Notes under the pieces: model-generated
Told to the model about the DNA's origin: nothing
Seen by the model: only the letters and a program-made list of their open reading frames with translations
Database searches by the model: none
Program-made: the position numbers and the translations under genes
Shown here: in pieces, positions 14,765 through 24,034 of the stretch
How the letters are laid out: each line of letters starts with the position of its first letter
How positions within the stretch are numbered: position 1 is the stretch's first letter
Origin: Candidatus Aenigmatarchaeota archaeon
GTDB taxonomy: Archaea; Nanobdellota; Nanobdellia; Woesearchaeales; ARS49
NCBI GenBank assembly: GCA_016198725.1
Contig: JACQIC010000078.1
Coordinates: 1 to 31,102 of the forward strand
DNA length: 31,102 nucleotides
Direction of reading: 5' to 3'

Positions 14765-15835
14765 TTAGGGTGTCTTCTGGAGTTCGTATTCTATTTGTTG
14801 TTGAAATCTTTCTCTGAGCTTGTACGTATTTCCGTGCAGGGCATATGCGTTCCAGCCTTGCAATACTTCAAGAACGTCCCATGCAGAAATAATTCCACAT
14901 TTATAATCAGCCAGTAATGCATCAAGTCTTGCGCGTATTTTTTTGAAATTGCGTGTTCTGACAAGTTTGTACTGGTAAAAAATGCGAAAACCAAGAAAGC
15001 TAACACCACGTCCCAATGGAATGATTTTGCATTTTGTAGGGTGGAGTTTGATTTTTAATGTCTTAATAAATTCCGTGATTTTTCTTTCATGTTCTTGTAA
15101 AGCTTTTTTTGAACGGTGGAGTATGACAAAGTCATCAACGTATCGAATATAGTATTTTGCTCGTAAGGTGTGTTTCACGAATTGGTCGAGCTCGTTCAAG
15201 TACACGTTTGCAAAGAACTGGCTCGTCCAGTTCCCCAGAGGCATGCCTTTGCCCGGAGTTCCTGAATCATAATTTTTAAGAACGCGCTGGACAAGCCAAA
15301 GAACGTATTCATCTTTTACGCGTTTTTTGATTATGCCGAGCAAAACAGCATGATCTACGGTTTCGAAATAGTGCCTGATGTCTGCTTTAAAGACGAAACA
15401 TTGAACAAAGTTTTTGTTTTGCGCACCGGCAACTTGTTTGCCATTTTGCGTTACTTTGCGCTTGAATTCATCAAAACGCTGAATAGCAGGAAGTGTGCCC
15501 TTTCCTGCACGACTTGCATAACTATCATAGATGAATAAAGGTTCAAAGATTGGCTTCAGGATGTTGACGAGAGCGTGATGAATGATGCGGTCTCGAAATT
15601 CGCTCACACAAATAACTCGTGTCTTTGGATCACGCAAAACAAATTTTCTTAAGGCGCGAGGTTTGTAAGTTTGTGTGCGCAATTCTTTTAGTAGATTGCA
15701 CAAATGAAGCTGCCAATGTTTATTGAATTCAATCATACAAGGATTGCCGAGCTTGCCTTGTTTTGCTTGTTCGTATGCGTGCTCAAGACTCTCAAAAGTG
15801 CATATGTTTTTCCAAAGATGGTTGTACGTTTTCAT
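14765..15835 (-). CDS. DGR-class reverse transcriptase
   Basis: PKTRVI..SEFRDRIIHHAL, FIYDSYASRAGKG, KADIRHYFETVDH, GMPLGNWTSQFFANVYLNELD (SQ motif typical of DGR RTs), YIRYVDD, FLGF. 356 aa with no maturase or endonuclease extension. Confidence 0.95.
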   Translation of the reverse strand: MKTYNHLWKNICTFESLEHAYEQAKQGKLGNPCMIEFNKHWQLHLCNLLKELRTQTYKPRALRKFVLRDPKTRVICVSEFRDRIIHHALVNILKPIFEPLFIYDSYASRAGKGTLPAIQRFDEFKRKVTQNGKQVAGAQNKNFVQCFVFKADIRHYFETVDHAVLLGIIKKRVKDEYVLWLVQRVLKNYDSGTPGKGMPLGNWTSQFFANVYLNELDQFVKHTLRAKYYIRYVDDFVILHRSKKALQEHERKITEFIKTLKIKLHPTKCKIIPLGRGVSFLGFRIFYQYKLVRTRNFKKIRARLDALLADYKCGIISAWDVLEVLQGWNAYALHGNTYKLRERFQQQIEYELQKTP

Positions 15836-15848
15836 CCAAATTAAAAGT

Positions 15849-16162
15849 CCTCGTAGCCGCTATTGACAATTGCGCTAAGGGTTAACCATTCAGAGAGCAG
15901 GCCAACTGTTGTTGATGTTGTCGTTGGCATTGATGTTGAACCTGTCGTTGTTGTTGATGTTCAACACCACGGCCCGCTCAGTAGCCCTGCCATCTCTTTG
16001 GCGTCACTGCCGTTTCAAACGTTCGCTCTGTTTTGAGGTACTGGCTGTCACGGCTGTATTTCATGGCAATGCCGCAAGCGCAGACTCTTGCCTTGATGGC
16101 AGGACGTGTGGTCTCCCTCTTGTCAAGACGCAGGTCATGCGTTATATGACAGCTACGAGGGC
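15849..16162 (-). ncRNA. putative structured DGR template RNA (5' leader + TR + spacer)
   Basis: TATA box at 16192-16183 and three mutually compatible long-range helices (16160-16149/15860-15849; 16126-16120/15869-15863; 16103-16095/15994-15986). Ends are inferred. Confidence 0.6.
15885..15984 (-). repeat. DGR template repeat (TR)
   Basis: Minus strand reads ...GTGTTG AAC ATC AAC AAC AAC GAC AGG TTC AAC ATC AAT GCC AAC GAC AAC ATC AAC AAC AGT TGG CCT GCT CTC TGA ATG GT, with 10 AAY codons. It aligns ungapped to 16247-16346. Confidence 0.95.
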
Positions 16163-16182
16163 GATAAAAACTCAAATACATT

Positions 16183-16192
16183 CATATAAAAA
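16183..16192 (-). promoter_or_regulatory. TATA box for the TR-RT transcript
   Basis: TTTTTATATG on the minus strand, about 23-32 nt upstream of the first leader helix at 16160. Confidence 0.55.
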
Positions 16193-16224
16193 TTTAGTGA
16201 ACGTGACATTCATTTTTGTCGCCA

Positions 16225-17079
16225 TCAATTTTTCGGCGCGCCGACGACCACCCAGAGAGCAGGCCAACTGAGGTTGATGTAGCCGCAGGCATCGATGTAG
16301 AACCAGTCGCTGTCGTTGATGTACAACACCACGGCCCGCTCAGTAGATCTTGTGTTCAAAGCTGGAGCCCAAACTCTTACTTCTCTAAGTTCTCCATCAG
16401 AACAAGGTTTTGACAAGTATTGGAACACTGCGCCAGCTTCTTCATATCCTTCTCCAAACAATGCTTGCAATAATGGCTTGGCATTTTCAGGAATTTGTTC
16501 AACAGTGCCATGCTTTGAAGAAGATTGTTTTTTGGCCAATAGAATGTAGGCACATGAATCAGCAGAAGTTTGTTTGGTGAACTCTGGGACTTGCAAGGTT
16601 TCAGTACGTAACTGTCCATCAATGTCGCGATAAGAAAGTGTTGCTTCTGCACTATTTTCTGTTGGCACTTTATATTCGATTTTCATTCCAGTGTGAATAA
16701 CATATTGATTAAAAATATCTCGCAGCTTATCACGACATGCCACTACCTCTTTAGTTTGGTCCGAATGCATCAAATGACGAACAACCTGATAAAAAATCTT
16801 CAAGTTCATGACCACTTTTCCAGATTCTTGCTGATAAGCCTGCCATCCTGACACATTATTGCTCACAATATTATTGTTGTCTTTAATTACATTAGGAACG
16901 AGTTTTGCATTAATACTACTGCCGTTGTAAGCCAAATTTTGGAAAAAGTATTCACCATTCTGACACTCGACATTTACTTTGTCAAAGCTAAAAAGTATTT
17001 TCTCCAAGTCTTTCAGTTCATCAGTAAAAACTCTAATGGTTTGCCCAAAAAGTCTGAGTTCAGGATTAAGCTCTGACAT
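16225..17079 (-). CDS. DGR target protein with C-terminal variable region (probably C-type-lectin fold), 284 aa
   Basis: VR encodes ERAVVLYINDSDWFYIDACGYINLSWPALWV at the extreme C-terminus. ATG 17079 is preceded by GGAGG and overlaps the upstream ORF end. CLec fold is inferred from known DGR targets. Confidence 0.88.
   Translation of the reverse strand: MSELNPELRLFGQTIRVFTDELKDLEKILFSFDKVNVECQNGEYFFQNLAYNGSSINAKLVPNVIKDNNNIVSNNVSGWQAYQQESGKVVMNLKIFYQVVRHLMHSDQTKEVVACRDKLRDIFNQYVIHTGMKIEYKVPTENSAEATLSYRDIDGQLRTETLQVPEFTKQTSADSCAYILLAKKQSSSKHGTVEQIPENAKPLLQALFGEGYEEAGAVFQYLSKPCSDGELREVRVWAPALNTRSTERAVVLYINDSDWFYIDACGYINLSWPALWVVVGAPKN
16233..16244. other. GC-rich palindrome just 3' of VR (candidate retrohoming hairpin/cruciform)
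   Basis: TCGGCGCGCCGA is a perfect 12-bp palindrome 2 nt after the end of TR/VR homology and is absent after TR. Confidence 0.6.
16247..16346 (-). repeat. DGR variable repeat (VR)
   Basis: Offset +362 from TR. 12 core mismatches (6 A>T, 5 A>G, 1 A>C) change 10 codons; 2 further A>G at the 3' end (TGAAT vs TGGGT). Confidence 0.95.
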
Positions 17080-18565
17080 TTCCAAACCTCCAGTGCGGTT
17101 TTGTAAAGTAAAGATGCTCGCCAAATCTTTCAGTATCACCGCCAGAAGCCATAAATTCAAATCCGGCGGGAATGTTCAAATACCTCTGACCTTTCAGGTC
17201 ATAAAAGAAAGGATGATTGTCTCTAAGTTCAAAAAAAAGCTTTGCGAACCCGACAGCAAGATTTGCGAACAATTGCTTATTATGGTCGCGCATGTGAAGT
17301 TTTTCTTTCCGCTCATGCTCCACCATACTCTCAAAATCAGCGAGTTGTGTTTGCAATTCATTTCTCACAGATTCAAGTTTTAATCTTATTCTGGAGCATA
17401 CATCAATAAAGTAATTCTTGTCAATTTCAACATCACCGAAGTTTTTGAGTTCTGCATTTATTTCAGATTTTGGAAAATATCTTTCAGCGATTCGTACGGC
17501 ATTATTTGTAAGAGAACGGTGTACGGTTTGTCTGGCAGCGCCTGCTTCAGCCTGCTTCAGTTGCGCAAAAGAAAGAGAAACTCCTTCAATCTGCGCACTG
17601 TACTGAGCACGCTGTTTTGCTGTTTCCCTGTCAAATGCAGAAAGAGCATGTTCTCCTTCCATCCAAATATCCAGTGCAAGCACTGCTGTCAAATAATCAC
17701 GTTCAGTTGAATTCAAATCATGTGACTCACGTGATGGTTCAATGTTCAATCTTTTTTCATCCGCTGAAATTCCAACTCTTTTCATCATTTCACTACTATC
17801 TTTTGCTTTTTGGCTGGCAACGAAACCTCCAATAAGAACAACATCAAGCGGATAAACTTCCTGTAAAACACTTCTTAAAACACTGTCCTCTGAATAAAAA
17901 CTGTCTACAGCAGGATGAGCTTCGTTATTAATATACTTTAGAAAGTTGCGCGGGTCTTCACTTTTTTCGATTTTTTCAACTGCACAAATCGCCTTAATCA
18001 TATCATTGCCTTCAAAGACATGAACGTGAGAAAGTATATCAGGAACTTTGCCTCCACGTCTGAAATAGTCAAAAACAGCTTGTCCTTCAGCATTAAGTTG
18101 CAAGTAACCAGTAATATCTTCGGTATACGTTCTATTGGTGAACCAAAATTCAAAAATATCAGCGCCGTTGGCTAATTTTGGAACTGACTCAAAAAGAGCT
18201 GCGGCAGCAATGCAATGAAGAGATTCGCTTGCTGACAAAACACGCTCAGTAAAGCCTCCGCTAACTTTTGCAAACAATGATGACGAATTTTTTAATATTG
18301 CATACGCCACAGGATCGGGAAATACACGCACCACATTCACCAAACGTTCTGCATTACTATTTCCCAAAACTTTCAAAACATCCTTTCCATAAACGTACCA
18401 GGCAAGCAACATGTCTGAACTGTGTTCAAATTGCGAACCAAATTTTATCACATTATTCTGGCCAGCAAGTTTTCTGACTAAGACTTCAAGACCTTTAGGG
18501 CTTACTTTTTTGCCAAGTTTAGCATTTAACTGCAAGTTCAAATTAACCAAATCATCCATGACCAT
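17066..18565 (-). CDS. hypothetical protein (499 aa, helical/coiled-coil C-terminal half) coupled to the DGR target
   Basis: Long ORF with TTTATAAA at 18588-18581; start may be 18559. 14-bp overlap with the target gene. No family recognised. Confidence 0.75.
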   Translation of the reverse strand: MVMDDLVNLNLQLNAKLGKKVSPKGLEVLVRKLAGQNNVIKFGSQFEHSSDMLLAWYVYGKDVLKVLGNSNAERLVNVVRVFPDPVAYAILKNSSSLFAKVSGGFTERVLSASESLHCIAAAALFESVPKLANGADIFEFWFTNRTYTEDITGYLQLNAEGQAVFDYFRRGGKVPDILSHVHVFEGNDMIKAICAVEKIEKSEDPRNFLKYINNEAHPAVDSFYSEDSVLRSVLQEVYPLDVVLIGGFVASQKAKDSSEMMKRVGISADEKRLNIEPSRESHDLNSTERDYLTAVLALDIWMEGEHALSAFDRETAKQRAQYSAQIEGVSLSFAQLKQAEAGAARQTVHRSLTNNAVRIAERYFPKSEINAELKNFGDVEIDKNYFIDVCSRIRLKLESVRNELQTQLADFESMVEHERKEKLHMRDHNKQLFANLAVGFAKLFFELRDNHPFFYDLKGQRYLNIPAGFEFMASGGDTERFGEHLYFTKPHWRFGNVRA

Positions 18566-23836: not shown

Positions 23837-23913
23837 CTCATCATTAGTCACTTTTAAATTTTGTGAATGAACATGAGTAACATTTAAAAAGAGCCTGCAA
23901 TTAACACGCGATA

Positions 23914-24020
23914 GGACGGTCACAGGGGCAGGGTTCACCCAGACTCATTCGAACCTGGCAGTTAAACCAGCCTCCGTACCGGACTGTACTGCACTACGCG
24001 GGAACTCCGGTAAGCTGTCC
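23914..24020 (+). rRNA. rrf: 5S rRNA, archaeal type, unlinked
   Basis: Helix I GGACGG/CTGTCC; CATTCGAAC, GTTAA, GTACCGGACTGTACTG and GGGAACTCCGG match archaeal 5S segments. TTTAAAAA at 23883-23890. Exact ends are uncertain by a few nt. Confidence 0.85.
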
Positions 24021-24034
24021 ACTTTACTTTCATC

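Follow-up and report, generated by a model that had tools for sequence, protein, structure and literature searches.

In the ribonucleoprotein of the Bordetella phage diversity-generating retroelement (DGR), the spacer RNA forms two adjacent duplexes, one with the 3' end of the template repeat (TR), which is the template:primer duplex and ends at spacer (Sp) position A56, and one with the 3' end of avd, named 'cPRT Stop' (Handa et al., bioRxiv 10.1101/2023.10.23.563531); the same work predicts such a stop duplex for 207 of 278 DGRs that contain Avd. Most DGRs, but not all, encode Avd (PF05635), so that it does not strictly define them. DGRs that lack Avd are an established class: in the survey of Wu et al. 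(2018, PMC5758913), 29% of DGRs have Architecture A, and the authors had suggested a variant of retrohoming that is independent of Avd. The RNAs RT-1 to RT-19 were described as motifs near reverse transcriptase (RT) genes (Weinberg et al., 2017, PMC5737381); only RT-10, the Bordetella spacer, was tied to a DGR, a DGR role was merely speculated for the others, and RT-16 was published without an assigned function. Here we analysed a 31,102-nucleotide (nt) stretch (the window) from Candidatus Aenigmatarchaeota archaeon (contig JACQIC010000078.1), which carries a complete DGR with no avd. We found that the leader of its TR belongs to RT-16 and that covarying helices join this leader to the sequence past the TR, and we consider it fairly probable that this region serves an Avd-less DGR as its non-coding RNA, a permuted, cis-priming RNA that would start and stop copying without an Avd-family partner.

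The DGR lies on the minus strand of the window in the order target open reading frame (ORF), variable repeat (VR), a gap of 240 bp (target stop at 16225, first TR base at 15984), TR and RT (Table 1). TR and VR differ at 14 positions of their 100-nt gapless alignment and all 14 are TR adenines; because the differences are confined to adenines, the element has been active. The RT contains an RVT_1 domain (Pfam search, 2.3e-24). Among solved structures it comes closest to bRT of the Bordetella phage (8ub7, E = 1.9e-38), which aligns over nearly the full length (residues 3-340 against 4-315), while retron-type RTs score far below bRT. A DGR-clade RT together with an adenine-specific TR/VR pair whose VR sits at the target 3' end identifies the locus as a DGR. 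Close homologues of the RT (49-70% identity) come from metagenome-assembled Woesearchaeota/Nanoarchaeota genomes, which places the host among the DPANN archaea, and the source genome measures 1.07 Mb and is about 92% complete. For the target ORF (16225-17160), we found no Pfam match and no similarity among solved structures.

The same gene order without an accessory gene is known from Architecture A1 (target-TR-RT; PMC5758913) and from the DUSEL4 Nanoarchaeota DGRs (PMC4372165). As in those systems, several DGRs share one small archaeal genome (here three RTs and five RT-16-TR modules) and a TR-end motif GGAAU/UGAAU faces GGGGU/UGGGU in the VR. The Avd-independent DGR subtype proposed by a model-made first-pass annotation of this DNA is supported in part, no avd being present at the locus, although Avd-less DGRs were already an established class (PMC5758913). 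What distinguishes the window locus is a structured leader RNA, of which neither PMC5758913 nor PMC4372165 gives a description.

The first-pass annotation had suggested that this leader may be part of an RNA scaffold. The leader is not a new RNA: it matched Rfam RT-16 (RF03019) with 71.6 bits (gathering score 50) over positions 1-158 of the 158-position model, and is therefore a member of a known RNA family of unknown function. Full-text literature searches returned no paper connecting RT-16 to DGRs. The association is regular: RT-16 precedes the RT in 34 of the 35 archaeal RT homologues with enough upstream sequence, and 23 of 34 RT-16 copies have an RT homologue within about 100-200 nt downstream (in the window, the RT starts 140 nt past the RT-16 end, in keeping with the definition of the family by a neighbouring RT gene). 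Across the phylum, RT-16 was present in 35 of 151 sampled genomes. The source genome alone holds five copies, each followed by a TR and three of them with an intact RT (contigs C47, C46 and C55); the RTs of C46 and C55 are 72% and 63% identical to the window RT, respectively, and the C46 module has about four VR-like copies. On contig C26 the RT is reduced to a C-terminal remnant next to two VR-like copies. The module of contig C86 retains promoter, RT-16, TR, closing helices and a T-tract, with no RT within 1.5 kb and no VR found. In the window, the inner hairpins and the helix P2 agree with the RT-16 model. The published model, however, reaches only as far as the TR start and has the 5' arm in a local hairpin (P1), whereas in the window and its homologous loci the 5' arm and a CUA/CCA box pair with sequence past the TR, in two helices that we call H1 and H2. 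Compared across these loci, the arrangement shows RT-16 to be the 5' domain of a larger, predicted DGR RNA.

A check of every base of the minus strand found the helices and the TATA-like box of the first-pass annotation all in place. The 390-nt region folds more stably than its shuffles (z = -4.1) and its minimum free energy (MFE) structure holds all three helices, with base-pair probabilities of 0.8-1.0 for H1, 0.55-0.88 for UUGACAA/UUGUCAA and 0.98-1.0 for P2. H1, the 12-bp pairing of the leader 5' end (CCUCGUAGCUGU) with the post-TR segment (GCGGCUACGAGG), consists of nine Watson-Crick pairs followed by U.G, G-C and U.G. Covariation, which had been named as its check, was scored by comparing each leader 5' region with its own post-TR segment and with that of every other locus, over 53 non-identical homologous loci, using weighted scores and identical search windows for cognate and non-cognate pairs; these scores replaced a longest-run score over wide windows, which was noisy because AT-rich runs scored by chance. 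Cognate pairs scored 11.16 versus 7.40 for non-cognate pairs (z = 17), a value that 0 of 20,000 permutations reached. The window leader found its best match among 53 possible partners in its own post-TR segment, and this match beat 2,000 of 2,000 shuffles of that segment. We counted 42 distinct H1 arm sequences, each accompanied by its own complement (for example CCUCGUAGCUGU, CCUGCAAUGG, GUCCUCAAAAUGCC and UUCCUGUGUGUGCCGUA), and H1 was part of the MFE fold in 41 of 45 loci. The claim that the wobbles work only in minus-strand RNA was also borne out, in the window and beyond it: 18 of the 42 distinct helices contain G.U pairs, which on the other strand would be A.C mismatches, and H1 is therefore a feature of the RNA of this strand. 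Across loci, 5-25 nt separate the end of its 3' strand from the RT start codon.

The promoter-like element attributed to the leader is confirmed and its position is conserved in homologues. The top-scoring TATA match begins 27-33 nt upstream of the first H1 nucleotide in 26 of the 42 homologous loci, and A/T content peaks at 0.83-0.95 between -29 and -23 relative to the H1 start, a spacing that fits an archaeal promoter predicted to start the RNA at H1. At the other end, a run of four or more T follows H1 within 25 nt in 15 of the 42 loci (for example L003, L005, L019, L036, L053 and L059). It may be an archaeal terminator that would give a discrete non-coding RNA, in which case RT expression would need read-through.

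Pairing of UUGACAA (16126-16120) with UUGUCAA (15869-15863) had been proposed as a short helix nested inside H1. This pairing is real, but it forms only the distal part of the longer helix H2, whose junction-proximal part (GACCA with UGGUU, including A16109:U15888) had been missed and is the best conserved. H2 was tested from two anchors chosen without regard to pairing, the box C[U/C]A|CACG and the TR-end motif GGAAU. The A of the box and the U of the motif form a pair in 50 of 50 loci; the neighbouring pair was U-A in 27 of them, C-G in 19 and U.G in 3, such that the strands covary as CUA/UAG or CCA/UGG. Over ten positions, 73% of the combinations were canonical in register versus 32-44% when the strands were slid by 1-3 nt and 59.6 +/- 1.6% in non-cognate combinations. 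Directly 3' of the invariant A, the junction CACG is present in 43 of the 50 loci and differs by one or two bases in the remainder.

These helices leave the TR in a defined position. The 9-bp helix of the first-pass annotation (CCUGCCAUC, 16103-16095, with GAUGGCAGG, 15994-15986) exists and bounds the TR as claimed, but was already known as P2 of RT-16. P2 marks the 5' edge of the TR exactly and H2 its 3' edge, and the space between the TR end and the RT start codon, only about 50 nt, is all taken up by H1 and H2. As both helices join the 5' end of the RNA to the sequence just past the TR, the TR becomes a single-stranded arm of a three-way junction. Pairing of the leader 5' end with the post-TR segment probably sets the start and the stop of DNA copying without Avd. 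New here are the recognition of RT-16 as a part of these DGR RNAs, the two helices H1 and H2 that extend it, an apparently permuted, retron-like layout and a candidate priming junction.

We compared this geometry with that of Bordetella phage BPP-1, whose DGR RNA runs from the avd 3' end through the TR to a 140-nt spacer. The phage sequence confirms the numbering: A56 pairs with TR U118, G57-C58 follow, and Sp59-70 are paired with avd369-379, 8 nt before the TR. In the window, A16109:U15888 stands beside the TR-end GAA, three unpaired nucleotides (CAC) follow and P2 ends at C15984, with the strands permuted relative to Bordetella. The two RTs belong to the same clade and in both systems the TR is flanked by essential-looking RNA, a duplex with a terminal A:U pair abuts the TR 3' end, and only 2-3 nt lie between that A and a second duplex, which reaches to within a few nucleotides of the TR 5' end or, here, to its boundary. 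An upstream/downstream duplex around the TR, as in BPP-1, is likewise present, in the form of the covarying H1 and H2. In contrast to BPP-1, the window locus has neither an Avd gene nor room for an Avd-binding stem-loop, its large structured domain and its primer-like strand lie upstream of the TR, and its post-TR segment measures about 50 nt instead of 140. The RT-10 spacer motif was not detected in the window by Rfam search, even at E <= 1.

The junction end of H2 would be the counterpart of the Bordetella template:primer duplex, with its invariant A:U at the same place as Sp A56:TR U118. P2, which opens 3 nt past the junction A and extends to the TR boundary, would correspond to the 'cPRT Stop' duplex, so that the positional counterpart of the avd:Sp stop duplex appears to be P2 and not the 12-bp H1; the RT-16 core would, by position, stand for the rest of the spacer. 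This mapping, which is drawn from position and conservation, would make the RNA a circular permutation of the Bordetella DGR RNA, with a primer-like strand upstream of the TR as in retrons.

Retron non-coding RNAs are ordered as a2 arm, branching G, msr, msd and a1 arm. The likeness to retron a1/a2 arms seen by the first-pass annotation holds as far as layout is concerned, since H1 and H2 close the RNA around a structured domain and a template: a 5' arm, conserved unpaired nucleotides, a structured domain, a template and a 3' arm succeed each other, with the RT gene downstream on the same strand. The window RT belongs to the DGR clade, however, and not to the retron clade, and the template is a TR that has a VR partner and an adenine-specific mutation pattern. 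Branching-G chemistry and multicopy single-stranded DNA are retron features, and the resemblance of the window locus to retrons is one of sequence layout.

In the mechanism that we propose, the promoter TATA at 16192-16183 would start the transcript at about 16164-16160. The RNA would then comprise the H1 5' strand, a short hairpin, the H2 5' strand up to A16109, CAC(G), the RT-16 core closed by P2, the TR, the H2 3' strand from U15888 and the H1 3' strand, with the RT start codon 13 nt further on. The RT would need no Avd-family partner: primed in cis at or beside A16109, it would enter the TR at the GAA end and halt at P2; the CACG junction would thus be the priming neighbourhood, and 2'-OH priming at A16109 is suggested by the positional analogy of A16109:U15888 to Sp A56:TR U118. 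H1 and distal H2 would be needed to bring together the primer-like strand and the TR 3' end, which are about 220 nt apart, a task that retrons solve with their a1/a2 arms. The RNA would then substitute functionally for Avd. In its strongest form, the proposal states that RT-16 DGR RNAs are circular permutations in which the primer A16109 and the RT-binding domain have moved upstream of the template, the ends are clamped and the Avd-binding element is lost, and that the RT and this RNA alone make cis-primed, adenine-mutagenic cDNA, a protein-minimal DGR; this stronger form we advance tentatively, thinking it somewhat less probable than its opposite.

Several points weigh against a cis-priming RNA that works without Avd. 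The Avd-dependent Bordetella DGR also has an upstream/downstream duplex, and a clamp alone is therefore no proof of Avd independence. Sequence analysis is blind to a non-homologous protein partner, and action in trans of the genome's one Avd-family gene is conceivable. Support for distal H2 is moderate only (z = 6.9). The Rfam model pairs the 5' arm with the strand assigned here to H2, as P1, and P1 carries some cognate signal (z = 4.9); a switch between the P1 and H1 folds is possible, although it is not the main signal. Finally, no RNA run with the sequence was listed, and both ends of the transcript, the site of priming and the making of cDNA are predictions.

One alternative is that a protein cofactor encoded elsewhere is still needed, either the PF05635 product in trans or a non-homologous protein, and that the clamp acts only as the avd:Sp duplex does in Bordetella. 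We consider this unlikely, though a serious contender: the genome does contain a PF05635 gene, RNA duplexes in Bordetella occur together with an essential Avd, and analogous proteins would be invisible to sequence searches. A search of the whole genome for Avd, which had been named as a check, returned this single PF05635 (Avd-family) gene (contig C87, 306-773, locus L001; 95 bits) and none at the DGR locus. The gene lies about 170 nt past the 3' end of the 23S ribosomal RNA (rRNA) gene (L001 1-133), and the same linkage is seen in relatives (L087, L089 and L092), whether they have a DGR or not. PF05635 was found in 9 of 35 RT-16-positive and 25 of 116 RT-16-negative genomes, and is thus not enriched with RT-16; the 26 RT-16-positive genomes without a PF05635 match are all at least 95% complete. 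Moreover, a profile built from the PF05635 proteins of the phylum detected no similar segment in 490 kb of 79 RT-16/RT loci, and besides the RT no ORF family was common to 33 loci within +/-5 kb. Since PF05635 is linked to 23S rRNA and is distributed independently of RT-16, a role in trans is unlikely and we rejected the C87 gene as a DGR component. Its context suggests instead a conserved, rRNA-operon-linked four-helix-bundle protein unrelated to DGRs. Many PF05635 matches in the phylum sit 200-700 nt from contig starts.

A second alternative, in our view unlikely as well, is that the 5' arm toggles between P1 and H1. The element would then be no static scaffold but a conformational switch, with reverse transcription or translation of the RT under its control. 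P1 belongs to the curated Rfam model, where it is formed by the first 14 and following 14 paired positions, and it draws on the same two 5' strands as H1 and H2; in compact members the four strands are mutually compatible, L011 and L003 being able to form either P1 or H1 plus H2, and the position of the H1 3' strand, just ahead of the RT start codon, would suit such a gate. In the window, however, 5 of the 14 P1 pairs are non-canonical, good pairs number only 5 to 7 versus 12 for H1, and the same strands pair better with the post-TR sequence. The cognate signal is weakest for P1 and far below that of H1, and in RNAs cut short ahead of the post-TR segment, local pairing of the 5' arm is seen at only 7 of 45 loci.

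It is less likely still that H1 and H2 are a mere closing stem for the RNA ends, serving stability, processing or termination, with priming elsewhere, for instance, like in Bordetella, from the short tail past the TR. Many stable non-coding RNAs do have terminal closing stems, T-runs follow H1 in 15 of 42 loci and RT-16-TR modules without an adjacent RT do exist, such as that of contig C86. On the other hand, the invariant A:U and its covarying neighbour lie immediately next to the TR end, P2 borders the TR start to the nucleotide, and H1 and H2 use up the whole post-TR segment of about 50 nt; the exact abutment of H2 and P2 on the TR suggests control of starting and stopping more than protection of ends.

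The first-pass annotation had seen no avd in the gap, rightly: the sole gap ORF (15978-16181, 67 aa) resembles Avd in size and charge, and small basic ORFs between RT and target of Nanoarchaeota DGRs have been flagged as possibly Avd-like (Paul et al., 2015, PMC4372165, Fig. 3 legend), but an Avd-like protein or a decayed avd is very improbable here, as this ORF has no Pfam match, an ATG ORF of at least 30 aa is missing from 34 of 54 homologous leaders while the others have short, truncated ones (none full length) that are similar through nucleotide conservation, leaders vary in length through frame-shifting indels (sizes not divisible by three), and the region fits the covariance model of a structured RNA. 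We therefore rejected it as an Avd analogue, its frame not being conserved; a chance ORF over RT-16 probably also accounts for the small basic ORFs of Paul et al. (2015, PMC4372165).

With a cis-priming DGR RNA as the preferred reading, RT-16, an orphan Rfam family present in about a quarter of the sampled genomes of the phylum, gains a function and an extended structure. The start and stop of reverse transcription in common Avd-less DGRs gain a testable RNA model, with candidate nucleotides named: the A16109:U15888 pair, the CAC junction and P2. If it is true that an RT of about 356 aa and an RNA of about 320 nt work alone, they would be the smallest DGR core, and such a two-component system would bear on the relationship between DGRs and retrons and be of interest for engineered targeted mutagenesis.

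Table 1. Features of the DGR locus (window positions) and further RT-16-TR modules of the genome (contig positions).
Feature	Position	Strand	Remarks
DGR target gene	16225..17160	-	311-aa ORF from a TTG start; alternative start, ATG near 17079
VR	16247..16346	-	3' end of target gene (its last codons); gapless 100-nt alignment with TR
TATA-like box uuuuuauaug	16183..16192	-	Some 30 nt ahead of the first RNA helix; predicted archaeal promoter for the DGR RNA
ORF, 67 aa	15978..16181	-	Basic (isoelectric point 9.9); overlaps RT-16; judged a chance ORF, not a gene
RT-16 RNA (RF03019)	15976..16164	-	Structured leader abutting TR
H1 5' strand	16149..16160	-	CCUCGUAGCUGU; predicted 5' end of RNA
H2 5' strand	16109..16126	-	UUGACAA, AGGG and GACCA segments; ends in invariant junction A16109
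Junction CACG	16105..16108	-	Conserved; 3' of A16109; CAC unpaired, G closes P2 in the fold
P2 5' strand	16095..16105	-	GUCCUGCCAUC; Rfam P2
P2 3' strand	15984..15994	-	GAUGGCAGGGC; last base (C15984) is first base of TR/VR homology
TR	15885..15984	-	Between P2 and H2; repeat pair with VR
H2 3' strand	15863..15888	-	UGGUU, CCCU and UUGUCAA segments; starts at U15888 of TR-end motif GAAU
H1 3' strand	15849..15860	-	GCGGCUACGAGG; ends 13 nt before RT start codon
RT	14765..15835	-	DGR clade, 356 aa; RVT_1; nearest solved relative 8ub7
Further RT-16-TR modules	C46 15562-15749; C55 7673-7947; C26 10290-10541; C86 192-344		

Around the target and the VR, we noted further elements. A GC-rich palindrome (UCGGCGCGCCGA; 16233-16244) followed by an A-run lies in the last codons of the target, directly after the VR, and targets at other loci likewise end in related GC palindromes and A-runs; the palindrome would fit the hairpin/cruciform element that has been described in DGR retrohoming. 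Further on, past the stop codon of the target but ahead of the TATA box, a box of roughly CCAYAGGAAAYGAAGG is conserved in 14 of 45 homologous loci, its window counterpart at about 16200-16225 being degenerate (AAAAAUGAAUGUCAC); it could be a regulator site or part of a VR-flanking recognition element. At the very start of contig C81 (1-97), a second VR-like copy of the window TR shows 16 mismatches, 15 of them at TR adenines, and may be a remote second target of the window DGR.

The locus was also present in four groundwater metagenome DNA runs, only as contigs. These contigs break inside the TR (15889-15942), where the summed word depth over the four runs rises from about 17 to about 735, because the AAC-rich TR core is common to many DGRs of the community. 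Elsewhere in the window, a 5S rRNA gene occupies positions 23912-24023 (Rfam RF00001, 49.8 bits).

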